From an uncultured Gammaproteobacteria bacterium (GTDB lineage Bacteria > Patescibacteriota > Microgenomatia > Daviesbacterales > UBA10151): a stretch of 9,900 bases of DNA. Under the pieces are notes generated by a model. That model was not told the DNA's origin. It saw only the letters and a list, made by a program, of their open reading frames with translations, and searched no databases. The stretch lies in contig CAYHYM010000002.1 in assembly GCA_964360965.1 (NCBI GenBank), positions 72,422 through 82,321 on the forward strand. Direction: 5' to 3'. How positions within the stretch are numbered: position 1 is the first letter of the stretch; each line of letters begins with the position of its first letter. Positions 290-9,900 of the stretch are shown here, in pieces. Both the position numbers and the translations under genes were made by a program.

Positions 290-1996
290 TCACATCCTTT
301 CCGGAGCCTCTATCCCCAAAAGATAAAGCCCCTTTTTTAAAACCTTACCAACTTCCCAAGATAATTTTAGCCTAAACTCCTCTTTTTCAGATCCAATAAT
401 CCTGCACTGCTGATAAAAAAGGTTATAAAATCTGGACAGTTCAACTAGATATTCTGCTAAGATATTTGGGTGATAGTTTTCTGCCACATCTTCAACAATC
501 TCCTGAAAGTATATCAGTTGCCTTAATATTGGTCTTTCCTGCTTTTCTAGCTTAACTTCACCAAACTCCATCCCTTTTTTTGTTAATTTCAAAACAGATT
601 GGATTCTGGCATAAGTATATTGTACATAAGGACCACTATCTCCTTCTAAAGAAACTGATTCCTCAATATCAAATACCATATTAGGTCTGGGAGAATATTT
701 AAGATAGGAAAACTTAATCGCTCCTAAAGCCACAACTTTTACAACTTCCTGATCCACATGTATCCTATTAGCTTTCATAATCTCTCTAACTTTTTCTGAA
801 ACTACATGATACAAATCATCCACAGTTATAACATTTCCTGTTCTTGAGGACATCTTCCCCTCCTTAAGATCTACAACTCCATATGATAAGTGATACTTTT
901 TACCATTAAGATATGGAAAGATCCTATTAATCGCTTCGATTACTACTTTAAAATACCCTTCCTGCTCTGAACCTACAACATGAATTGATTTATCATAGTT
1001 GAAGCTGTCATATTCCAATTGAGCCAAACCTATTTCTTTACCTTCATATGTAGAATGTCCAGCTGATGTAATAAATACCCTATTATGCAGGCCGTATTTT
1101 TCACCAGGAAATATAACAGCTCCATCATTTTCTTCAAATACTTTACCCATATTCTCTAAAACTATCTTTTTACCTGAATCAAACACTTCGCTTTCAAAAA
1201 AACATCGATCATATTTTACACCTAAAAGTTGATAGATGGGCTCAAAATATTCCAAACTCCAAGACCTTGTAAGCTCATAAACTTCTTTAACCTCTGAATC
1301 TTTCTGGTAAAGCTGAGAGTTAATTTTATCTATATCTTTTTTAGCTTCAACATCCTCATCATAAGCTGTATTTCCTTCTGTGTAAGCCTGACCTAAAAAT
1401 TTAGCCTTTTCTTTTAAATTAAGCTCCTTTGTGGGTAAACCAAGCTTTTTTATCCCCCAAATAGCCTTGGCAATATGTAAACCAATATCTCCCTGATAAT
1501 TAGCTCTAAAGACCTGATGTCCTACTGAGTCAAACACCCTACAAAGACTTTCACCTAAAATAAAAGTTCTTAAATGTCCTATATGTATTTCTTTCAAAAG
1601 GTTAACATGTCCATACTCCACCAAAATTTTGTCACCTTTTCGTAATGTCGCTAATAGATCTTGATCTTGTGAATTTTTTATCAGCTGTTCATCCTTTATA
1701 AAAAAATTAATAAATCCTCCACCAGCTACCTCTACTTTTTCTAAGTAATCGGGTTTTCCTAACTGTTGTAAAATTTTATTAGCAATCTCATCTGATGACT
1801 GATAGTTTACAGTTGATGACTGCTTAGCCAGCTGCAGCGCGATATTCGTACTATAGTCTCCAAATTTTGCATTTTTGGTAATAGCTAAAAGTGGATCAGT
1901 TGGTTGGTAACCCAATTCTTTAATAACTTTTTTTAGATCCTTAAGAATTCTGTTTTTTAGCATAAGTATAAGTTTCGCGCTTCCTGTATTAATCAT
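290..1996 (-). CDS. argS: Arginyl-tRNA synthetase
   Basis: 568-aa ORF with a class I HIGH motif (..KEIHIGHLRT..), the ArgRS-type KMSK equivalent (..GKMSSRTGNV..) and a helical anticodon-binding C-terminus. The start overlaps the comEC stop by 8 nt (ATGATTAA). An alternative start is Met12 at 1963. Confidence 0.95.
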   Translation of the reverse strand: MINTGSAKLILMLKNRILKDLKKVIKELGYQPTDPLLAITKNAKFGDYSTNIALQLAKQSSTVNYQSSDEIANKILQQLGKPDYLEKVEVAGGGFINFFIKDEQLIKNSQDQDLLATLRKGDKILVEYGHVNLLKEIHIGHLRTFILGESLCRVFDSVGHQVFRANYQGDIGLHIAKAIWGIKKLGLPTKELNLKEKAKFLGQAYTEGNTAYDEDVEAKKDIDKINSQLYQKDSEVKEVYELTRSWSLEYFEPIYQLLGVKYDRCFFESEVFDSGKKIVLENMGKVFEENDGAVIFPGEKYGLHNRVFITSAGHSTYEGKEIGLAQLEYDSFNYDKSIHVVGSEQEGYFKVVIEAINRIFPYLNGKKYHLSYGVVDLKEGKMSSRTGNVITVDDLYHVVSEKVREIMKANRIHVDQEVVKVVALGAIKFSYLKYSPRPNMVFDIEESVSLEGDSGPYVQYTYARIQSVLKLTKKGMEFGEVKLEKQERPILRQLIYFQEIVEDVAENYHPNILAEYLVELSRFYNLFYQQCRIIGSEKEEFRLKLSWEVGKVLKKGLYLLGIEAPERM

Positions 1997-2999
1997 ACCA
2001 CTTTTTACTGATAGCCAGCAAAGATCCTAACATCAAATAATACCCTATCCATACCAGAGGAACCTGCTCCCCCACATATTCCCAGGCAAAGGGAAAAGAC
2101 GAGAAAAATTGCACTATGTAGATAAAATAATTTAGCAGTATGTTTAATATTAAGGCTAAAACTTCAGCCAGCCCTGTCCAAAGCAATGCCGGCAGAATAA
2201 ATAATATGCCTATAATCATGATATAAGGAATAGTCCATAACACCAACAGGTTGGCAATTATCCCAACAAGCGAGATCTGATGAAAATACCCTGCAATGAC
2301 CGGAATGACCATCAGCTGAGCCCCAATTGTCACTGACAAATCTCCGCTGATGAATTTAGGCATAAATTTAAGGAAAGAAAATATGATCGGCGCCACTGCA
2401 ACTACCCCAAAAGTTGCCAGGAAAGACAGCTGAAAAGAGATATCAAATAGCCACTTGGGACTAATAAGCAGTAATAAACCCCCTGTGACGATCAGTACCC
2501 ATAAACCATCCTTTTGCCTGCCCAAAAAAGCAGCCAGGAAGCTCAAAGTAACCATCAGAGCAGCTCGCAAAACCGGTATTTGGGCTCCGGTTAAAATGGT
2601 ATAGAAAATTATTGTTCCAAAAGAGGCTATGATGGCTACTTTTCTGCCGATCAATCCGGAAAGAATAAGAAAAAATCCGGCTGTGATTGATAAATTCTGT
2701 CCTGAAACCACCACCAGATGTAACGTTGAAGTATCTCTTAAACTTAAAAGTAACTGGCCCGGCAAATCTTTTCTATTGCCCAGTATAATCCCTGATAGAA
2801 GCTCTGCTTGAGGGGAAGGTAGAAAATTGGTTATTTGCTGATCAATTGCCTGTCTCTCATTTTTTAAGATATCGATCTTAATTTCCCATCCTCCCTGAAT
2901 TGTTCTTAACCCATAAAGCAGCAGGAATAAGACAATGCTAAAGATCAAAGGCAGCTTCTCTAAAATATAACTAAAAACATAACTTTTTATAAAATACAT
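1989..2999 (-). CDS. comEC: ComEC/Rec2-family DNA-uptake channel, competence domain only
   Basis: 336-aa polytopic membrane ORF. It carries the competence-domain signature (..LPSPQAELLSGIILGNRKDLP..LRDTSTLHLVVVSGQNLS..) followed by multiple hydrophobic helices. It is too short for the N-terminal OB-fold domain or the C-terminal metallo-beta-lactamase domain of full-length ComEC. The start overlaps the comEA stop (TAATG). Confidence 0.85.
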   Translation of the reverse strand: MYFIKSYVFSYILEKLPLIFSIVLFLLLYGLRTIQGGWEIKIDILKNERQAIDQQITNFLPSPQAELLSGIILGNRKDLPGQLLLSLRDTSTLHLVVVSGQNLSITAGFFLILSGLIGRKVAIIASFGTIIFYTILTGAQIPVLRAALMVTLSFLAAFLGRQKDGLWVLIVTGGLLLLISPKWLFDISFQLSFLATFGVVAVAPIIFSFLKFMPKFISGDLSVTIGAQLMVIPVIAGYFHQISLVGIIANLLVLWTIPYIMIIGILFILPALLWTGLAEVLALILNILLNYFIYIVQFFSSFPFAWEYVGEQVPLVWIGYYLMLGSLLAISKKWYD

Positions 3000-3592
3000 T
3001 AATAAACAACGACAGAGTCTTTGATCTTTTCAAAAACACTTTGGCCCACAATTTTCTTCTCAATTAGCTCCTCCACTTGTCTGTAAGGCCTTTGAGAGAT
3101 GATTTTGGCAGCAGTGACAGGGCCAATACCAGGTAATGATTCAATTTCAGTTTGGGTGGCAGTATTAATGTTAATTTTTGATTGAATACCTGTTCCTGCT
3201 ACGATCCCACTTGATCCAGCTTGGCCCTGACCAGCTAAAGACTCACCCTCAAATGGTATATATATTTTGCTACCATCTGATAGTTTTTGTGCTAGATTTA
3301 AATACTTTGATATAAATTCTTTATTGGCCTGATCTAAAAAGCCCCCTGCAACTGATATGGCATCTGTCACCCTTGATTCATTATTTAATTGATAAACACC
3401 CGCATTTTTGACTGCTCCTGAAACATCAACAGAAATATCTTTTTTTTGGACCAGGCTTTCTTGGGGGAAATTTTGTTTTTGACTGCGGTTTAAAGAACCG
3501 GCCAATACTCCTCCCATAATTAAAACTATGCCCACTAAGCTCAGGGCTAAAGGGATTTTGTATTTTTCTAATGTTTCTTTTAAATTTTCCAT
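2999..3592 (-). CDS. comEA: ComEA-type DNA receptor (TM anchor + SLBB + helix-hairpin-helix)
   Basis: 197 aa. N-terminal TM helix (IPLALSLVGIVLIMGGVLAG), an SLBB-like segment (VDVSGAVKNAGVYQLNNESRVTDAISVAGG), a Gly/Gln linker and a C-terminal HhH (ININTATQTEIESLPGIGPVTAAKII). Confidence 0.85.
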   Translation of the reverse strand: MENLKETLEKYKIPLALSLVGIVLIMGGVLAGSLNRSQKQNFPQESLVQKKDISVDVSGAVKNAGVYQLNNESRVTDAISVAGGFLDQANKEFISKYLNLAQKLSDGSKIYIPFEGESLAGQGQAGSSGIVAGTGIQSKININTATQTEIESLPGIGPVTAAKIISQRPYRQVEELIEKKIVGQSVFEKIKDSVVVY

Positions 3593-3594
3593 TA

Positions 3595-3969
3595 TTATCT
3601 AGATTTAACCCACCTTTGATAATCTTGATTTAATTTACCCATCCCCCGCCTTAACATCTCTTTTTTAACTATCCCGCCAGCATGAGGATATTTAAAAAGC
3701 CTGACTCTGTTTGATGAAAATCCATGAGCAAAATGTACCAGTTCATGGGCAATGGTGTGATCAATCACGCTGATTGGTATCTTTTTATTTTTAAACATAG
3801 CGGTAATGGTAATAACAGTCTGAGGGTTATTTTTGATGAATTTAATAGAGCCCAGCCGCAGTCTGGCAAAACGTCCAAATTTAATGGCAATTTTTACCTT
3901 TGGCAAGTCTAAAAAATATCTTGACCAGATCTTTTCCAAACGTAATTTTAAAAAAGTATTATTTCTCAT
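3595..3969 (-). CDS. Small HExxH zincin-like protein (SprT-like / DUF45-like)
   Basis: 124-aa basic ORF with a single HExxH (..VIDHTIAHELVHFAHG..) preceded by an R-x-LGS-I...I-I pattern like that seen in SprT/YgjP-type proteins. The start overlaps the leuS stop (ATGA), and its stop is 2 nt from the comEA start. The fold assignment is from memory of the family patterns and has not been searched. Confidence 0.6.
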   Translation of the reverse strand: MRNNTFLKLRLEKIWSRYFLDLPKVKIAIKFGRFARLRLGSIKFIKNNPQTVITITAMFKNKKIPISVIDHTIAHELVHFAHGFSSNRVRLFKYPHAGGIVKKEMLRRGMGKLNQDYQRWVKSR

Positions 3970-6524
3970 AATACAAAGTTGATTACTTTACCTGATATAT
4001 AAATTGTCTTCACAATTTTTTTCCCGGCTAAAAATTTTTGTATTTTATTACTTTGAAAAGCCATTTTTTTTATTCTTTCTTCATCAGAAAACATATCTTT
4101 TTGTATCGTAATTGTATCCCGTACCTTACCATTAACCTGAACCACAACTGTCATCTCTTCCTCCTCTAAATAAATTTTGTCAAACTTAGGGAATGACTGC
4201 TGATGAATAGACCATTTTTCAGTAATATTTCTGACTTGCTGATCTGCTGACTTACTGATCTGCTGATATAATTCTTCTGTGATATGGGGAGCAAAAGGAG
4301 CAAGCAAAAGTAAAAATGTGTTATATTCCTCTTTTGAAACCTTTTCTCTCTTTGACAGATGATTCAGCCATTCCATCAAGGCAGCTATGGCAGTGTTAAA
4401 TTTGATATTTTCAATTTCTTCCCCCACTTTTTTAATGGTCTTATGCATCATGCGTAGGCTTTGAGCCTCCAGAGCCTCCAGGGGGACGCCTTGGAGGTGT
4501 AAATCTACCTTTTCCTGTAACATCCAGACTCTTTGTAAAAATCTGTAGATTCCATGCAAGCTGCTGTCCCTAAAATCCCCACCTTCTGAAAATGGACCAA
4601 TGAACATAAGATATGTTCTTAAAGTATCTACACCATATTCTTTAATGTAATCATCCGGATTGACTATATTACCTTTTGATTTACTCATCTTAGCCCCCTC
4701 TTTAATAATCAGCCCATGCGCCCTAAACTTACTAAAAGGCTCCTCAAAATCCAAAAACCCTAAGTCTTTAAGCACCATTGTCACAAAACGAGAATATAAC
4801 AGGTGTAAAACAGCATGCTCAGCCCCACCAATGTACATATCAACAGGTAACCACTTCTTTGTGATACCAGGGTCAAAAGGGACTTGCCCTGAGCGAGACT
4901 TCGACGGTGAGTCTTTCGACCCTGAGCTCAAGACCGAAGGGCTCAGTCGAACCGCAGAGAGAGTCGAAGGGTATCTTAAAAAGTACCAGGAAGAGTCCAG
5001 GAAAGTATCAGAAACATCTGTTTCTCTTTTGGCTGCTCCACCACAGTTTGGGCATTTAACATTATAGAAATCTGGTACAGAAGCCAGTGGTGACTTACCA
5101 GTACCAGTTGGCCTAAACTGTTCAATATATGGTAATTCTACCGGCAGATCTCTTTCTGGAACAGGTTGAATCCCACACTTATCGCAATAAATAATCGGTA
5201 TGGGCGGCCCCCAATATCTTTGCCTGGAGATTAACCAATCTCTTAGATGATAATTGATTTTTCTATTACCAAATCCTTTTTCTTCCATCCAATCCATTAT
5301 CTTAACTCTTCCGGGATTAGGTGAATTTAGCCCATTAAATTGGCCTGATGCAACAATAAAACCTTCTTCCAAGACATCTTTAGCACTCAAAACTTTTGAC
5401 TGATCACTGGCAGTCTTACCTATTACTCTGATAATTTCCAGATCATACTTTTGGGCAAATTCAAAATCACGATGATCTGAACCAGGTACACCCATCACAG
5501 CACCGGTTCCATATCCTCCAATTACATAATCTGCAATCCAAATCGGGATCTTTTTATGATTAACCGGGTTTATGCAATAAGAACCAATGAATACTCCGGA
5601 CTTTTCTCTTTTCAGGATTTTTCTTTCCAATTCAGATTTCTTTTTAGAAGATTTGATATAACCGTCTACTTCTTTTTGTCTATCTTTAGTTGTTAGTTTA
5701 CCAACCAAAGAATGTTCCGGGGCTAAAACCATATAAGTCACCCCAAAAATAGTCTCAGGAAAAACTGTATAGACATTAATTACGTCATTGCGAACGTCAA
5801 CAGGGAATTCTATCTCCATTCCTTCGCTTTTGCCAATCCAATTGTTTTGCGCTTCGCGCAGCGGTTTTGGCCAATCAATGGTTCGACTTCGCTCACCACT
5901 TTCAGCCCATAAAAGTCTTTCGGCATAATCCGTGATTTTTAAAAACCACTGTTCCATCAATTTCCTCTCAACCTGGCTATTGCATCTTTCACACAGGCCA
6001 GCAATGACCTGTTCATCAGATAGTACTGTTAAACAAGAAGGACACCAATTTACAGAAGCTTTTTTGCGATATGCCAACCCTCTCTTTAACATCTGCAGGA
6101 ATAACCATTGAGTCCATTTATAGTAATTAGGCTGGTAGGTTTCTACTGTCCTTTGCCAGTCATAGCTATTTCCAGACATTTGAAGCTGCTCATAGAATCT
6201 TTTCTCAGTGATCTTGGAAAGCTCCATTGGATGTTTATTGACACTCAAAGCATAATTTTCGCTATGAATACCAAATCCATCTAAACCAATGGGTTCAAAT
6301 ACATCAAACCCTTGCATTCTTTTGAACCTGGAATAGATATCTGAACCTGTAAAAGCATACATATTACCTACATGTAGGCCTTCTGCAGAAGGATAAGGAA
6401 ACATCATCAAGCTATAATAAGGTTTTCTGGCCTGATCCATATCAGGACTAAATAGCTGGTCCTCTCTCCACTTTTTTTGCCATTTAGGTTCAATCTCAGC
6501 TGGTATATATTTTTTCATATCCAT
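3966..6524 (-). CDS. leuS: Leucyl-tRNA synthetase (bacterial type) carrying a 26-codon low-complexity insertion
   Basis: 852 aa. HIGH-type motif (..GLHVGNMYAF..), KMSKS (..GAKMSKSKGN..), Cys clusters CPSC..CERC and CDKC..CPNC, the WIGKSEG motif after the CP1 region, and PVDMYIGGAEHAVLHLLYSRF. An alternative start is Met3 at 6518. No Shine-Dalgarno sequence lies upstream. Confidence 0.95.
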   Translation of the reverse strand: MDMKKYIPAEIEPKWQKKWREDQLFSPDMDQARKPYYSLMMFPYPSAEGLHVGNMYAFTGSDIYSRFKRMQGFDVFEPIGLDGFGIHSENYALSVNKHPMELSKITEKRFYEQLQMSGNSYDWQRTVETYQPNYYKWTQWLFLQMLKRGLAYRKKASVNWCPSCLTVLSDEQVIAGLCERCNSQVERKLMEQWFLKITDYAERLLWAESGERSRTIDWPKPLREAQNNWIGKSEGMEIEFPVDVRNDVINVYTVFPETIFGVTYMVLAPEHSLVGKLTTKDRQKEVDGYIKSSKKKSELERKILKREKSGVFIGSYCINPVNHKKIPIWIADYVIGGYGTGAVMGVPGSDHRDFEFAQKYDLEIIRVIGKTASDQSKVLSAKDVLEEGFIVASGQFNGLNSPNPGRVKIMDWMEEKGFGNRKINYHLRDWLISRQRYWGPPIPIIYCDKCGIQPVPERDLPVELPYIEQFRPTGTGKSPLASVPDFYNVKCPNCGGAAKRETDVSDTFLDSSWYFLRYPSTLSAVRLSPSVLSSGSKDSPSKSRSGQVPFDPGITKKWLPVDMYIGGAEHAVLHLLYSRFVTMVLKDLGFLDFEEPFSKFRAHGLIIKEGAKMSKSKGNIVNPDDYIKEYGVDTLRTYLMFIGPFSEGGDFRDSSLHGIYRFLQRVWMLQEKVDLHLQGVPLEALEAQSLRMMHKTIKKVGEEIENIKFNTAIAALMEWLNHLSKREKVSKEEYNTFLLLLAPFAPHITEELYQQISKSADQQVRNITEKWSIHQQSFPKFDKIYLEEEEMTVVVQVNGKVRDTITIQKDMFSDEERIKKMAFQSNKIQKFLAGKKIVKTIYISGKVINFVL
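4884..4961 (-). repeat. GC-rich in-frame insertion inside leuS (encodes LSAVRLSPSVLSSGSKDSPSKSRSGQ)
   Basis: 47/80 G+C over 4881-4960, against visibly AT-rich flanks. It contains TCGA(C/A) repeats, CCCTGAGC twice and a CTGAGC/GCTCAG inverted repeat. It sits between the conserved SSWYFLRY and PFDP..WLPVDMYIGG blocks. Confidence 0.6.
4911..4940. repeat. Copy 1 of a ~30-nt GC-rich repeat (gtctttcgaccctgagctcaagaccgaagg)
   Basis: It aligns with the reverse complement of 6724-6753 (gtcattctgaccctgagcattagccgaagg). The two share the blocks GTC-TTC-GACCCTGAGC and CCGAAGG, including a 10-mer GACCCTGAGC. Confidence 0.6.
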
Positions 6525-6532
6525 ATAGAATT

Positions 6533-6561
6533 ATTCTAAAGGGCTTTCATCAAGATTGCAA
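6533..6561 (-). promoter_or_regulatory. Candidate sigma70-type promoter of the leuS operon, placed for a near-leaderless transcript
   Basis: On the minus strand: TTGCAA (6561..6556), a 17-nt spacer, then TAGAAT (6538..6533). Only 8 nt separate the -10 from the ATG at 6524, and leuS has no SD. Confidence 0.45.
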
Positions 6562-6568
6562 GTAAAGT

Positions 6569-6598
6569 AAATCTATGCAAGATGGACAAATCTATGCA
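6569..6598. promoter_or_regulatory. Two perfect 11-nt direct repeats (AAATCTATGCA) just upstream of the leuS -35
   Basis: Copies at 6569-6579 and 6588-6598 with a 19-nt period. On the minus strand they read TGCATAGATTT at roughly -45 and -65 relative to the predicted start. Confidence 0.4.
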
Positions 6599-6628
6599 TC
6601 TGTGTCCTTTGAGCTTAAGAGGGCACAA

Positions 6629-6839
6629 CCCGAAGGATCTCTTGCGCTCGCTTCGCGAAGCGAGAATGCAAGTACTGAAACAAGTGTTGCAGAGCAACTA
6701 CTTCGTAGGACAGAGATTCTTCTCCTTCGGCTAATGCTCAGGGTCAGAATGACATATTTACGGTGCTTTTTGCCATGACGAGCGACCCATTTTGCGCAGT
6801 GACGAGCTACTTACTAGCTCAAATTACTTTTCACACCGT
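6629..6839. ncRNA. Candidate structured RNA / cis-regulatory island (family and strand unknown)
   Basis: 108/220 G+C over 6601-6820, against 9/60 in 6841-6900. Nested helices: a closing helix 6630-6637/6723-6730 (CCGAAGGA/TCCTTCGG); hairpin 6641-6672 (CTTGC-g-[18-nt perfect palindrome CTCGCTTCGCGAAGCGAG]-aat-GCAAG); hairpin 6682-6703; hairpin 6713-6724; a second closing helix 6760-6765/6834-6839 (ACGGTG/CACCGT) around hairpin 6804-6820 (GAGCTA-cttac-TAGCTC). TGACGAGC occurs twice, at 6776 and 6800. Confidence 0.3.
6724..6753. repeat. Copy 2 (inverted) of the ~30-nt GC-rich repeat
   Basis: The plus strand ccttcggctaatgctcagggtcagaatgac is the reverse complement of a close relative of 4911-4940. 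Confidence 0.6.
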
Positions 6840-6989
6840 TTTCACAAATATAAATTATTCATAACCATATATTATTTGATATAGTTTATATGTATTTTGT
6901 TGTATCTATTATCTATGAACTATTAAAAATTAACTATTGTTGAAGCAGTGCGTTAATTTCTTTGACAAACTTTGATATATTTTGACCTC

Positions 6990-7019
6990 TTGACAAAAAT
7001 AATAAAGAAGTTTTATCCT
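6990..7019 (+). promoter_or_regulatory. Candidate promoter P1 (CCTCTTGACA - 18 nt - TATCCT)
   Basis: TTGACA at 6990-6995, an 18-nt AT-rich spacer, TATCCT at 7014-7019. The architecture is the same as P2. It would start transcription around 7026, just before the hairpin. Confidence 0.35.
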
Positions 7020-7028
7020 TAGAGCATG

Positions 7029-7065
7029 AAGCAGGGCTTGTGCAGACGGAGAGCCCTGCTTTTTT
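7029..7065 (+). terminator. Intrinsic-terminator-like hairpin with no upstream gene
   Basis: Stem GCAGGGCT (7031-7038) pairs with AGCCCTGC (7052-7059). It has a 13-nt loop tgtgcagacggag and is followed by T6 (7060-7065). Flanking A:T pairs can extend the stem. Confidence 0.6.
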
Positions 7066-7109
7066 GAGCGGTTAGCGAAGGATCTAGATAATGAATTTCG
7101 TTTTCCCTC

Positions 7110-7139
7110 TTGACATATTATTATTATAGTGGGTATGCT
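7110..7139 (+). promoter_or_regulatory. Candidate promoter P2 of the giant ORF (CCTCTTGACA - 18 nt - TATGCT)
   Basis: TTGACA at 7110-7115, an 18-nt spacer, TATGCT at 7134-7139. The predicted start near 7146 gives a ~33-nt 5'UTR containing AAGGTG (7160-7165). Confidence 0.4.
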
Positions 7140-7178
7140 AAATCTAGGCAGACGGACTCAAGGTGCATACCAAAACCT

Positions 7179-9900
7179 ATGAAAAGACCGTCTGACCAAA
7201 ATACCCCTTTACTCAAAATTGGTGATGCTGCCAAAGCCTTAAAAGTCTCCATTGATACTTTAAGAAGATGGGAAAAGAAGGGGAAGATCTTATCTGTCAG
7301 AACTCCAGGTGGCACCAGACTGTTTGATGTATCTGAGCTTCAGCCCAAAAATTTAGCTCAAACTGTATCAATTTCCCAAGCTGCTCAAAAATTGGGGGTT
7401 TCTATTAAAACCCTAAGAAGATGGGACCAAACTGGTAAACTCCAAGCCACAAGAACTGATAAAGGTGAGAGAAGCTACAAATTAGGGGATATAGAAAGAG
7501 TGACCCAATCAGTCATTCTGGAGGGAGGTGCTAACCAACCAAGAGAATCTAGAGACTCTCTTCTGTCACTCCAGAATGACAGGTTAATTCCTTCTTTTCT
7601 TCCCAAAGCTCTTTTGACTGGATTGATCTCCACCATTCTGATTACTGGTATTATCACAGCTGGTTATTTAAAAGCTCCACAGCAAACTAAAAGTTTTCTG
7701 GCAGCTTCTTCCATTGTTAGCAAACAGCAAAGCCAAGTGCTAGGAGTTGACTCAGATGTAAAAGGGTTATTGCAGCAGTCCGCATCAGTGCTACTGCTCC
7801 CGTTTGATACCCTATCAAAACGGATCATTTCATCTGTTTCCCCGGGTAAACTTAAGGAATTAGGTTTTGCCCCGGAAGACTCTAACTCTAAGATAAACGC
7901 CAAAATAGACCAGCTTAAAAAAGATTTATCTGACAAAGTATCACAAGTTGACCTTAACACCAAATTATCAACTGTCAATTCTCAACTATCAACTGTGGAT
8001 ACCACCATGTCAAGCTTAATCATTAACTCCTCTTTTGAGGCCAACTCCTCCGGACAACCATTATCCTGGTTGTACCTTAATCAATCCACCAAAGATAACA
8101 CTTTTGTCAATAATGCCTCAGTTCGAACCGGTAACCTGGCTTTAAGAATAGAGCCTAAGGGAGGCGCTACCAGTTTTGGCATCTATAATCCATCTGCCAA
8201 AACCTCTTTTGGCAGAAGCTACACCTTATCTTCATATATTAATAACCAATCATCCCAAAAAATCAATGTCAAACTAACCTTTTGGGACAGAGTCAACAAT
8301 AAAAAAGCGCAAACACACGATCAATCAATCCCTGCCCAATCAGGCTGGCAAAAAGTCTCCTACACCATAGATAATAGCCAAACCACCCAGGGCATTGACT
8401 GGTACCCCATGATTGAGGTTGAGGCTTCATCAGGTGATGTTTATATTGATGATGTGGCTCTTACCGAGGGCGCAGCCACTTTTGTCTATCATCCTTTAAA
8501 TCAATATCTTGGGGATGGCACAGTCTATGCTGATTTTAATGCCAACCTCTATCCTCTCTCTCATCGGGGTGGCTCTTTGGGGATGGATAACCAGAGATTT
8601 GGTTCCCTGTACCTGACCGGTGGATCAATTGACTCATCAGGCAATACCAACTTATCAGGCAACTTGACCATATCAGGCTCTATCACCATCAACTCACCCA
8701 CCAAATTCTCAGACGGCACTGTCTCTGAACCCGGCATTGCCTTCTCATCTGACAGTGATACCGGCATTTACAAATCAGGGGCCAATATCTTAGATTTTAC
8801 CAGCGGCGGGGTGAGAACTTTAACTCTGGCCACAGCCACAACTGGAGTCAACTATATCAGTATGACTCCTGCAGCCTCAGGCTCCGGACCAACTATCGCC
8901 TCAGCCGGCTCTGACACCAACATTCCTTTAACCATTAACTCCCTTTTGACCGGAGCATTAACTTTGGATTCCACTTCCACCGGGACAGTGAACCTGGGAA
9001 CAGGAAATAGCGCCAAGACAGTCAATATCGGTACTGGCTCAGTAGCCAATACCATCACTATTGGTTCATCCTCTGCCACCACCACTGTTAATAGTGACCT
9101 GACAGTGACCAGAGTAGGCACTTTTACCAGAGTGCCCAGTGGAGCCCACACCGGCACCTGGGCGATTGATTCCAGTACTTGGAATGTTTCAGGGGCCACT
9201 CTCTATATTAACCCTGCCAGCGCTGGTAGTGATACTAATTTGATAGGCTTGGCAGTAGCTGGTGGAGTCAAATTTGCTGTTGATGCTGAAGGTGATGTTT
9301 ATGGTAGAAATTTAATACTGACTGGTACCACTACCACCAGTACCACTTCTGTGACTGGTGATCTCACTGTTGAAGGTAACACTACCTTGGGTGACTCAAC
9401 AACTTCTGACACCCTAACAGGTAATCTATTAACCTCAGCCATTACCTCAGGAGCCACTACCCAGACTGCTTTTGCCATCACTGCTGCCTCTTTAACTACA
9501 GGTGAACTACTTGATTTAACCTCTACCTCTGCCCCCACAGATGGATCTACTAATGAAGGAATAGATATAAACATCACCCATACAAATACCACCTCTGCTG
9601 ATAATTTCAGGAGCATAGATTTAGATACCTCTGATGGCACAGCTTTGGGTAATACCATATATAACTATGATGGGACCTTAACCTTAACCGGTAATGCTGC
9701 CAAGGTGGGTTATGGACTGTATCAGACCATCACCTCCAACTCCACCACCGCTGATACCATCTATTCCATCTACGGGGCCAATTCTGTGACCGGTGCCATA
9801 GCCTCTGGTACCAGATCAACCTATGGACTGTATTCTAATCCTGCACAGAGTGGGGCCAACTCTGGTGGCACAGCCAACCTCTATGGAGCATACATTAACC
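7179..9900 (+). CDS. Giant membrane-anchored protein, N-terminal >907 aa (partial, runs off the right edge): 2x MerR-type HTH + TM + CBM-like + tail-fibre-like Thr/Gly/Ser-rich repeats
   Basis: A hand translation from ATG 7179 shows no in-frame stop through 9899, and an in-frame TGA lies upstream at 7092. It is not in the track because it has no stop in the window. The six minus-strand track ORFs here have low-complexity, shadow-like sequences. Coherent domain-like sequence runs throughout (see the sub-features). Confidence 0.9.
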   Translation, partial: MKRPSDQNTPLLKIGDAAKALKVSIDTLRRWEKKGKILSVRTPGGTRLFDVSELQPKNLAQTVSISQAAQKLGVSIKTLRRWDQTGKLQATRTDKGERSYKLGDIERVTQSVILEGGANQPRESRDSLLSLQNDRLIPSFLPKALLTGLISTILITGIITAGYLKAPQQTKSFLAASSIVSKQQSQVLGVDSDVKGLLQQSASVLLLPFDTLSKRIISSVSPGKLKELGFAPEDSNSKINAKIDQLKKDLSDKVSQVDLNTKLSTVNSQLSTVDTTMSSLIINSSFEANSSGQPLSWLYLNQSTKDNTFVNNASVRTGNLALRIEPKGGATSFGIYNPSAKTSFGRSYTLSSYINNQSSQKINVKLTFWDRVNNKKAQTHDQSIPAQSGWQKVSYTIDNSQTTQGIDWYPMIEVEASSGDVYIDDVALTEGAATFVYHPLNQYLGDGTVYADFNANLYPLSHRGGSLGMDNQRFGSLYLTGGSIDSSGNTNLSGNLTISGSITINSPTKFSDGTVSEPGIAFSSDSDTGIYKSGANILDFTSGGVRTLTLATATTGVNYISMTPAASGSGPTIASAGSDTNIPLTINSLLTGALTLDSTSTGTVNLGTGNSAKTVNIGTGSVANTITIGSSSATTTVNSDLTVTRVGTFTRVPSGAHTGTWAIDSSTWNVSGATLYINPASAGSDTNLIGLAVAGGVKFAVDAEGDVYGRNLILTGTTTTSTTSVTGDLTVEGNTTLGDSTTSDTLTGNLLTSAITSGATTQTAFAITAASLTTGELLDLTSTSAPTDGSTNEGIDINITHTNTTSADNFRSIDLDTSDGTALGNTIYNYDGTLTLTGNAAKVGYGLYQTITSNSTTADTIYSIYGANSVTGAIASGTRSTYGLYSNPAQSGANSGGTANLYGAYIN
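7209..7499 (+). other. Two tandem MerR-type winged-HTH units (aa 11-52 and 62-107 of the giant ORF)
   Basis: LLKIGDAAKALKVSIDTLRRWEKKGKILSVRTPGGTRLFDVSEL and VSISQAAQKLGVSIKTLRRWDQTGKLQATRTDKGERSYKLGDIERV. Both follow the MerR pattern I-x-x-A-A-x-x-x-G-V-S-x-x-T-L-R-x-W-(E/D)-x-x-G-x-(L/I)...R-x-x-x-G-x-R-x-(F/Y). Confidence 0.75.
7605..7667 (+). other. Single transmembrane helix (aa 143-163, KALLTGLISTILITGIITAGY)
   Basis: This is the only long hydrophobic stretch in the ORF and there is no N-terminal signal peptide. The implied topology is N-in (HTHs cytoplasmic) and C-out. Confidence 0.7.
8007..8474 (+). other. CBM4/9/22-like jelly-roll carbohydrate-binding-type domain (aa ~277-432)
   Basis: It begins ..LIINSSFEANSSGQPLSW.., has ..NASVRTGNLALRI.. 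in the middle and ends ..GDVYIDDVALTEG. These are the typical N- and C-terminal strands of this fold as I remember it, not searched. Confidence 0.5.
8565..8813 (+). other. Phage-tail-fibre-like conserved motif block (aa ~463-545)
   Basis: GGSLGMDNQRFGSLYLTGG followed by DGTVSEPGIAFSSDSDTGIYKSGANILDFTSGG. The second pattern (G-T/S-x-x-x-P-G/S-I-x-F-x-x-D-x-D-T-G-I-Y..G-x-N-x-L-x-F-x-x-x-G) is recalled from phage tail fibres and giant surface proteins. Confidence 0.45.

Follow-up and report, generated by a model that had tools for sequence, protein, structure and literature searches.

Proteins that unite a DNA-binding domain with at least one transmembrane (TM) helix, the operational definition of a transmembrane regulator, were surveyed by Demey et al. 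(2023; PMC10269533), whose catalogue of 50,302 members with more than 100 kinds of DNA-binding domain includes MerR (386), MerR_1 (350), and HTH_17 (151) representatives. The general kind is therefore known, and a preliminary description of the locus analyzed here, made from the DNA letters alone, went too far in holding that the known membrane-tethered factors use OmpR-type domains. The locus in question is a gene for a giant membrane-anchored surface fiber that leaves the edge of a 9,900-nucleotide stretch of an uncultured Patescibacteria genome (contig CAYHYM010000002.1, positions 72,422 to 82,321; the whole stretch is called the window below). Its product, with a helix-turn-helix (HTH) part, one TM helix, and a very long ectodomain, falls within the definition of Demey et al.; what is new against the known kind is the IS607/BldC-type domain, the giant repetitive ectodomain, and the conserved, self-targeting operator array with a hairpin. 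No paper describing this HTH-TM-fiber family was found in a literature search, in agreement with the earlier statement that no characterized system has an HTH-TM-giant-ectodomain architecture.

The characterized regulators of the ToxR/CadC/TcpP type, which act on DNA from the membrane, share with the fiber protein a layout in which one chain carries a DNA-binding domain at its cytoplasmic N-terminus, crosses the membrane by one TM helix, and ends in an extracytoplasmic C-terminal part, but they have OmpR-type winged helices and small periplasmic sensors, whereas the fiber protein has an IS607/BldC-type domain and thousands of residues outside; also unlike them, its HTH appears to target the promoter of its own gene. 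The N-terminal domain of IS607-family TnpA binds helically phased direct repeats of ~9 bp near the element ends (Chen et al. 2018, PMC6188088). Common to TnpA and the fiber protein are an N-terminal DNA-binding domain, the near-identical recognition helix SIDTLRRWEK.GK...RT.GG.R.Y, a 10-bp motif at the gene start, and phased direct repeats; the fiber gene differs in being without a serine-recombinase domain, tnpB, or transposon ends, and in its conserved chromosomal synteny. BldC of Streptomyces forms head-to-tail multimers on direct repeats (PMC5859096). It is, like the fiber HTH, a minimal MerR-like winged HTH without coiled coil or effector domain (PDB 6ama, 6amk), is the best PDB sequence match, and follows the same direct-repeat logic, but it is a soluble protein of 68 amino acids (aa) with the recognition helix DPKTVTRWAKAG. 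RacA of Bacillus subtilis (5i41, 5i44), the top fold match and a sequence match of the second HTH of the fiber protein, is likewise a MerR-like winged HTH that holds DNA at the envelope; RacA is soluble, contacts the membrane through DivIVA, and has many origin-proximal sites, whereas the fiber protein has an integral TM helix and its sites are concentrated at one promoter. TraN of plasmid pIP501 (PDB 4pm3), also among the fold matches of the HTH region, has in each chain two excisionase/MerR-like HTH folds, which form an internal dimer on double-stranded DNA, and differs from the fiber protein in being a small soluble type IV secretion component without TM helix or ectodomain. The RsgI-type anti-sigma factors of Clostridium thermocellum are single-pass proteins in which an extracellular carbohydrate-binding module (CBM) couples polysaccharide sensing to transcription; their cytoplasmic anti-sigma domain is not DNA-binding, unlike the domain found here, and their ectodomain is modest in size.

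The plus-strand reading frame that opens at ATG 7179 continues for 907 codons without a stop and is open to the window edge at 9900, and the start is backed by an N-terminus, M-x-x-P-S, that is kept in orthologues. Within the window, the gene comprises:

7179–9900, plus strand: 5′ part of the giant membrane-anchored surface-fiber gene (open frame that leaves the window)
7209–7343 (aa 11–55), plus strand: HTH1, a minimal MerR-like winged HTH of the IS607-TnpA/BldC type (Pfam MerR at aa 13–49, HTH_17 at aa 11–54)
7362–7508 (aa 62–110), plus strand: HTH2, a second winged HTH (MerR_1 at aa 64–108; RacA 5i41, E = 3e-3; MtaN)
7527–7592 (aa 117–138), plus strand: low-confidence, probably disordered cytoplasmic linker (predicted local distance difference test, pLDDT, <50)
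7596–7673 (aa 140–165), plus strand: single TM helix, a signal-anchor with the N-terminus inside (hydrophobicity and AlphaFold helix)
7674–7988 (aa 166–270), plus strand: juxtamembrane helical stalk rich in Ser/Leu/Lys/Gln (AlphaFold helices 167–188, 192–220, and 235–248; composition)
8013–8480 (aa ~279–434), plus strand: CBM_4_9-like beta-sandwich (Pfam, AlphaFold, Foldseek)
8254, plus strand: C in the context CCC-AAAAAA that is missing from the sister contig described below, an assembly error or strain variant
8586–9900 (from aa 470), plus strand: Thr/Ser/Gly/Ala-rich fiber region (composition)

Pfam profiles matched the open reading frame (ORF) with MerR (E = 8e-24, two stretches), MerR_1 (2e-16), and HTH_17 (3e-11), the first two above their cut-offs and with the best stretches at aa 13–49 and aa 64–108, and AlphaFold2 produced two confident winged HTHs (pLDDT ~90) followed by a 17-residue helix at aa 102–118. 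HTH1 and HTH2 are 41% identical by blastp, with a common recognition helix, SI(D/K)TLRRW. HTH1 (pLDDT ~90) matched BldC (6amk) by sequence at E = 2e-5 and the BldC-DNA structures by Foldseek with a TM-score of 0.75–0.85 and a root-mean-square deviation (rmsd) of 1.2–1.5 Å, and its residues I14, G15, T27, L28, R29, R30, W31, G35, R41, T42, G44, T46, and R47, 13 residues in and around the recognition helix and wing, are invariant among relatives. The only hydrophobic segment of the 907 aa lies at aa ~136–167 (Kyte-Doolittle maximum 1.92 at aa 144), and no N-terminal signal peptide was found in the product, which has no Cys anywhere. In the stalk, the motif SP..AKELGF.P.D is kept in relatives (alignment A1). 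The beta-sandwich, modeled with pLDDT 80–96, resembles CBM16 (2zew; Foldseek E = 5e-9, TM-score 0.71) and also CBM22/4/61; aa 270–494 scanned alone against CBM_4_9 (PF02018) gave E = 4e-5 and 24.3 bits, with a cut-off of 25.9, and the same profile matched 16 of the 21 homologues (best E = 1.7e-11). The remainder, aa 470–907, is 19% Thr, 13% Ser, and 13% Gly, and neither it nor its 609-aa continuation matched anything in Pfam or PHROGs. The preliminary description therefore stands in its single frame running past the window edge, its two MerR-type HTHs, its one TM segment without signal peptide, and the Ser/Gln/Lys segment, CBM-like sandwich, and Thr/Gly/Ser-rich region that follow; its “tail-fiber-like” label finds no backing in either database. 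Tail-fiber hints are few and weak: Mtd_N in locus L094, Peptidase_S74 in a neighbor of protein P0014, and a GNVGIGTT.P..L.V motif that recurs among relatives. A prophage or tail-fiber origin was rejected on the grounds of conserved chromosomal synteny and the lack of a PHROGs match.

The MerR label holds for the HTH profile matches, and fails for the classical MerR regulator. The nearest PDB structures by sequence are BldC (6amk, E = 2e-5), RacA (5i41), and MtaN, and by fold RacA-DNA (top), BldC-DNA (rmsd 1.2–1.5 Å), Xis, and TraN; BldC-family, IS607 transposase, and excisionase models take the top NCBIfam ranks, and the PHROGs matches of the HTH part are transposase and excisionase families. 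The NCBIfam equivalogs MerR, CueR, ZntR, SoxR, and their relatives scored far under their cut-offs, with the HTH only being matched. HTH1 passes directly into HTH2 and then into the 17-residue helix, the linker, and the TM helix, without the long dimerization helix or effector domain of the classical layout, so that the HTH is not that of a classical MerR regulator. The DNA differs likewise: a MerR operator is a palindrome in a 19–20-bp spacer, and here the spacers are 17–18 bp and the sites are 10-bp direct repeats. Membership in the nearest families is also incomplete. The BldC family model NF033787 gave 56.7 bits against a cut-off of 77, for a protein of more than 907 aa rather than a small single-domain one; the IS607 transposase model NF033518 gave 44.5 bits against a cut-off of 110, over profile positions 2–45 only; and no serine-recombinase/resolvase domain was found by Pfam in the 907-aa product. 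Profiles and models together thus place the HTH as a minimal domain of the BldC/RacA/IS607-transposase type.

Relatives were collected by a word-index search and by a scan of one genome per Genome Taxonomy Database (GTDB) species, the loci being chosen by peptide pattern and not by DNA. The word-index search returned 13 relatives, whose named sources are Patescibacteria, Daviesbacteria, or Microgenomates. In the GTDB scan, 50 of 80 loci combined the HTH with one TM helix at aa 72–268 and an ORF of at least 315 aa, most of the ORFs leaving the 3-kb flank. About 50 species-level Patescibacteria genomes, mainly Daviesbacteria/Microgenomates, thus bear the HTH-TM-giant-ORF fusion, and the search for the same domain order that the preliminary description called for gave a clear positive answer; the longest metagenomic examples reach at least 4,245 aa (L094) and at least 3,160 aa (L164). 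We hold with high confidence that this architecture is real and defines a conserved family. The two-HTH chain of the preliminary description, for which TraN is a precedent, is present in only 6 of the 50 loci, most having one HTH; by these comparisons, HTH1 is the conserved family core and the tandem pair a variant of a minority clade.

The CBM-like module has a wider distribution than the HTH. An exhaustive search found 101 homologous clusters, where the word-index search with the CBM/fiber part had given almost nothing, and most of the 99 clusters checked have only an N-terminal hydrophobic signal or anchor in front of the module, which places the fiber part outside the cytoplasm and the HTH part inside. 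An HTH of the SIDTLRRW type with a TM helix precedes the module in 15 of the 99. By this distribution, the HTH is an add-on to a pre-existing class of surface proteins. Eight further clusters have a TM helix behind a different, canonical-MerR-like N-domain (GDPNNRLRYYTK.GLLPH), which would be a second, independent MerR-like fusion to the same class. In these eight (P0018, P0020, P0064, P0070, P0071, P0078, P0088, and P0102), GDPNNRLRYYTK.GLLPH is followed by EGHYP.. and ..G....EIK, and the N-domain looks like a canonical MerR HTH with the beginning of the dimerization helix.

Two further observations concern the orthologues. An intein/Hint domain (PF14890) lies inside the extracellular fiber of P0012 (L010/L056), P0008, and L111, inserted directly after GNVGVGTTSP..LHVVGQ|C, an unusual host site for an intein; the domain may instead be a bacterial intein-like autoprocessing domain. 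In L008 (10103–17599), the complete 677-aa orthologue P0014 is followed by two large genes (656 aa, and 1,809 aa with LVIVD repeats and a weak Peptidase_S74 match), an arrangement that suggests a surface-fiber gene cluster.

A 10-bp motif, AATCTA(T/G)GCA, is concentrated in front of these genes. Its operator-like arrays, which the preliminary description overlooked, are the strongest evidence of the analysis. In 268 kb of related loci, 107 of 126 matches fall at most 250 nt upstream of the gene, at least one match is present at 41 of 50 loci, and the density of a relaxed form is 9.9 per kb upstream of the gene versus 0.375 per kb elsewhere, a 26-fold difference. The spacing between successive copies is 10 bp in 18 cases, 22 bp in 11, and 32 bp in 7, so that the copies are helically phased. 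The motif directly follows the -35 hexamer TTGACA in 33 of the 50 loci and, as 10-bp direct repeats, fills the spacer between the -35 and -10 elements, often with an inverted copy; in L021, L027, L037, and L047, an exact copy holds the start ATG. The promoter-leader consensus reads CCCTTGACA-AATCTATGYA-AATCTATGTA-CGATGG-ATTAAG-AATCTATGCA-(~8)-CAGATT-TGCATAGATT-T-AGGCAGACGGA-(15-25)-ATG-(6-9)-CCGTCTG. The window holds 4 motif matches where 0.46 are expected, in an altered layout that is common to the tandem-HTH clade:

6569–6598, plus strand: the motif in two exact copies at a distance of 19 bp (AAATCTATGCA), shortly upstream of the promoter-like site of leuS, which lies on the minus strand at 6561–6533
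6990–7065, plus strand: second promoter-like site (TTGACA, 18 nt, TATCCT) with a hairpin (7029–7038/7052–7061) and T6 (7060–7065)
7110–7139, plus strand: proximal promoter-like site (TTGACA, 18 nt, TATGCT at 7134–7139), kept in L011 and L012
7140–7150, plus strand: operator-like motif AAATCTAGGCA, immediately after the -10 hexamer
7147–7197, plus strand: leader hairpin that encloses the start codon, CAGACGG (7149–7155) pairing with CCGTCTG (7188–7194, codons 4–6), from RNA folding
7174–7183, plus strand: degenerate motif copy AACCTATGAA containing the start codon, read from the sequence

The same motif accompanies the same HTH in other proteins. It is found in promoters of tail-anchored HTH proteins of ~200 aa from Woesebacteria, and directly upstream of, and over the start of, cyanobacterial IS607 transposase genes (201 and 210 bits, with a cut-off of 110) whose products have an identical recognition helix, SIDTLRRWEK. 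At these IS607 genes, an inverted copy covers the tnpA ATG and a further inverted copy ~2.3–2.4 kb downstream is consistent with the other end of the insertion sequence. Given the precedents of IS607 TnpA and BldC, the most economical reading of these co-occurrences is that this type of HTH would bind AATCTA(T/G)GCA.

The occurrences outside the fiber genes have further details. The Woesebacteria proteins (L055, L061–L065, L068, L073–L077, L083–L085, and L088–L089) are 180–260 aa long. In them, a long low-complexity linker joins the same HTH to a TM helix at the very C-terminus, and a terminal (I/L)SP(I/V)P is conserved; in several of their genes, the motif stands right after the -35 hexamer. 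The form AATCT(A/G)TGC(A/T) lies just before tnpA in the IS607 elements L066, L070, L072, L075, and L080 (cyanobacteria), in L071, L078, L081, and L090, and in L079, and these copies give a ready prediction of the TnpA end-binding motif of those elements. Three motif copies with 12-nt spacing also lie in the coding region of two tandem-HTH orthologues (L023, +638 to +662, and L024, +479 to +503, from the gene start), where they may be operator sites within the gene or reflect a peptide repeat of 4 aa. When metagenomes were scanned for the motif in two adjacent copies, at least 15 more HTH(+TM) genes came to light 30–170 nt downstream; the scan showed no recurring second target gene and, being noisy with satellite arrays and eukaryotic sequence, is no clean regulon test.

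The leader hairpin at 7147–7197 has a folding free energy of -18.6 kcal/mol (z -5.2; matched by 0 of 200 shuffles), and RNAfold placed an equivalent start-codon hairpin in most of the 31 distinct leaders. Alternative registers occur with both arms changed together (TAGACGG/CCGTCTA, GGACAAAC/GTTTGTCC, and GGACGAAG/CTTCGTC), and cognate pairs of leader and coding sequence were more stable than permuted ones in 10,000 of 10,000 permutations, by a modest margin (-12.8 versus -11.4 kcal/mol). This conservation of pairing suggests that the hairpin adds translational control. The second promoter-like site, at 6990–7065, has a -35 sequence given as CCTCTTGACA, and the loop of its hairpin, GCAGACGGA, is the sequence of the 5′ arm of the leader hairpin. 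Its fold has a z of -2.6, and the equivalent in L012 (alignment A2, columns ~585–690) has the same loop on a wholly different stem. The element could be a partial duplication of the promoter-leader, and it could yield a ~40-nt short RNA or act as an attenuator that competes for CCGTCTG in codons 4–6.

The shared motif and HTH, with the IS607 and BldC precedents, make autoregulation the most economical reading, and we consider it fairly probable that the membrane-tethered giant surface fiber regulates its own promoter through the motif. The cytoplasmic HTH would bind successive motif copies cooperatively and head to tail, in the way of IS607 TnpA and BldC on phased direct repeats, and the membrane-bound fiber protein would thereby control its own promoter. 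Because spacer, transcription start, and start codon are all overlaid by motif sites, autorepression would be the most likely sign of control, with the start-codon hairpin as an extra translational layer; in the clade of the window, the two HTHs of one chain would occupy neighboring motif copies. As for the fiber, it most likely serves at the cell surface for attachment or glycan binding.

Autoregulation might be carried further, to an evolutionary reading that we advance tentatively and, taken whole, regard as rather doubtful: an exapted IS607 left end was fused to a fiber gene, and the HTH acts in cis at the membrane. The former left end would then comprise the motif array, a motif copy that holds the start codon, and the DNA-binding domain of transposase type, and it would have been joined in frame to the signal-anchor of a pre-existing fiber gene, most fiber homologues keeping a plain signal peptide. 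Of a chain several thousand residues long, the HTH is synthesized first, and membrane insertion is co-translational; while still nascent, or once anchored, the HTH could thus work in cis at the promoter of its own gene. The locus would be tied to the membrane and initiation held to roughly one giant transcript at a time, and engagement, shedding, or turnover of the fiber could reset expression.

Several points weigh against autoregulation by the fiber protein. The proximal promoter of the window has one good and one degenerate motif copy, and the best pair (6569–6598) lies 580 nt upstream, by leuS. Nine of the 50 loci are without the motif as defined, although several of these have an opposite-orientation variant, TTTGCATAGG, and the motif scan covered 268 kb of loci, not whole genomes, so that sites at other genes are possible. 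The motif could be occupied by another protein whose HTH is nearly the same, for instance a soluble paralogue or an IS607 transposase encoded in that genome, and the 18-bp spacer could leave room for MerR-like activation. The fiber has no detectable homology to characterized adhesins or tail fibers, and its role is therefore a guess. Finally, the 1-nt deletion at 8254 breaks the frame of the sister contig in the CBM-like domain, at aa ~359, where its called gene is 365 aa long.

The sister contig, Hain_H51_01um_R1_1702 of ENA (20.7 kb, 4x coverage), is 99.7% identical to the window; its name hints at Hainich groundwater and a 0.1-µm filter. The preliminary description had named a frameshift separating the HTH part from the ectodomain as a ground for giving up the fusion. 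A frame break does exist in the sister contig; it lies, however, 190 residues past the TM helix, and the HTH-TM junction is identical between the two sequences. In an exhaustive search, homologues aligned uninterrupted across 8254 in the frame of the window, which is therefore the correct, intact version. The full-length gene that the preliminary description had wanted recovered was obtained in part: the sister contig extends it to at least ~1,860 codons, the frame being open to the contig end through a run of N that represents a scaffold gap in repeats, and a stop at ~1,351 aa was dismissed as an artefact of that gap. The repeat units of the sister contig (L001) are 1,149 nt (383 aa) long and present in 3 copies, and the window stops within the first copy, which begins at ~9490. 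At 9854–9881, inside this repeat and within the last 47 nt, the window has 7 mismatches to the sister contig that are probably cross-talk between repeat copies at an assembly end, which calls for caution with the last ~50 nt.

Among the rival explanations, the best survivor is a contact or glycan sensor, that is, a one-component transmembrane regulator with a regulon wider than its own gene, which would work in the manner of ToxR/CadC or of the CBM-bearing RsgI anti-sigma factors; contact of the CBM or fiber with a host surface or a polysaccharide would change oligomerization or free the HTH. The single-pass, N-in topology with a cytoplasmic DNA-binding domain and a CBM-like ectodomain is what such a sensor would have, MerR-type transmembrane regulators are catalogued (PMC10269533), and extra motif copies stand beside the leuS promoter of the window. 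Against these stand the background frequency of the motif outside the gene's own upstream region in the 268 kb of related loci, the lack of a recurring second target in the metagenome scan, and the absence of any sign of a cleavage site or partner protease; moreover, most ectodomain homologues are without the HTH, so that the fiber does not need it. We regard such a sensor as unlikely.

The resemblance of HTH2 and of the model to the DNA-binding domain of RacA, together with comEA and comEC in the divergent operon, could instead point to a DNA tether without regulatory function, which would fasten the chromosome to the envelope in the manner of RacA or keep incoming DNA close to the comEA/comEC products. 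This seems very improbable, given that the motif clusters at a single promoter and not at many chromosomal sites, and that sequence-specific binding is ill-suited to the uptake of foreign DNA. The neighborhood also differs from that in the preliminary description, which took comEA/comEC for the divergent neighbors: the divergent neighbor is leuS, comEA and comEC lie at least 2.9 kb away behind it in a leuS-orf124-comEA-comEC-argS operon, and the setting is not common to L007, L008, and L010, the atp operon being the neighbor in other lineages.

RodZ-like HTH-TM proteins (HTH_25) make up ~11% of the catalogued transmembrane regulators, so that architecture alone is no proof of DNA binding, and the HTH might be a protein-interaction module, as the RodZ HTH binds MreB, with the motif belonging to another factor. 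We give this little credence, as the residues of the recognition helix and wing do not vary and are the same as in the DNA-binding IS607 transposases, and the motif co-occurs with the HTH in three unrelated architectures. That the fusion arose from chimeric or faulty assembly, or belongs to a pseudogene in decay, as the low coverage, 1-nt deletion, and N-run of the sister contig and the mismatches at the window end might suggest, is scarcely credible against about 50 independent assemblies with this architecture (some of them chromosomes that are complete or nearly so: CP066688.1 and contigs of 1.0–1.1 Mb), the homologues aligned in frame across the indel, and the HTH-TM junction shared by both assemblies.

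Position in the chromosome also links the fiber genes of different lineages. In L007, L008, and L010, the gene lies downstream of the operon for F1Fo ATP synthase. Of these three loci, L007 and L010 have the atp operon in divergent orientation to leuS, and it spans 1169–8000 in L007 and 1448–8000 in L010, between leuS and the fiber gene. The tandem-HTH clade (the window, L011, which is the Daviesbacteria chromosome CP066688.1, and L012) has no atp operon, and its fiber gene is divergent from leuS across a spacer of 550–1,040 nt. On this gene order, the fiber genes are positional orthologues. The 650-bp spacer of the window (6525–7178) was considered as a place of atp remnants, and this was rejected, tblastn with the L007 atp proteins giving only noise; blastn found nothing similar to the spacer at other loci. 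There was no Rfam match in the window or its spacer region 6450–7250 even at E ≤ 1, none in L011/L012, and no tRNA. On the minus strand of the window (290–6524), leuS, a 124-aa ORF without family, comEA, comEC, and argS overlap or abut (4-, 1-, and 8-nt overlaps) and look like one operon, with a short comEC (336 aa, Competence domain only); the packing of competence genes between two tRNA synthetase genes is unusual. A G+C-richer part of the spacer (6596–6830, plus strand) with palindromes such as CTCGCTTCGCGAAGCGAG has fold z values of -2.55 (plus strand) and -0.88 (minus strand), without an Rfam match, and is not kept in L011 or L012.

The Patescibacteria, or candidate phyla radiation, comprise ultra-small bacteria, few of them cultured, for which a life in attachment to other cells is assumed; how they attach, and how they control the few very large surface proteins within their means, is an open question. 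For one such fiber gene, the present analysis offers a testable system that consists of a 60-residue DNA-binding domain, a 10-bp site, a promoter grammar, and a start-codon hairpin. Should binding of the HTH to its own promoter from the membrane be borne out, this would be the first worked MerR/IS607-type transmembrane regulator, the first surface-structure protein to carry its own transcriptional feedback, and probably the first case of a transposase DNA-binding domain reused together with its end-binding sites as a regulatory cassette.

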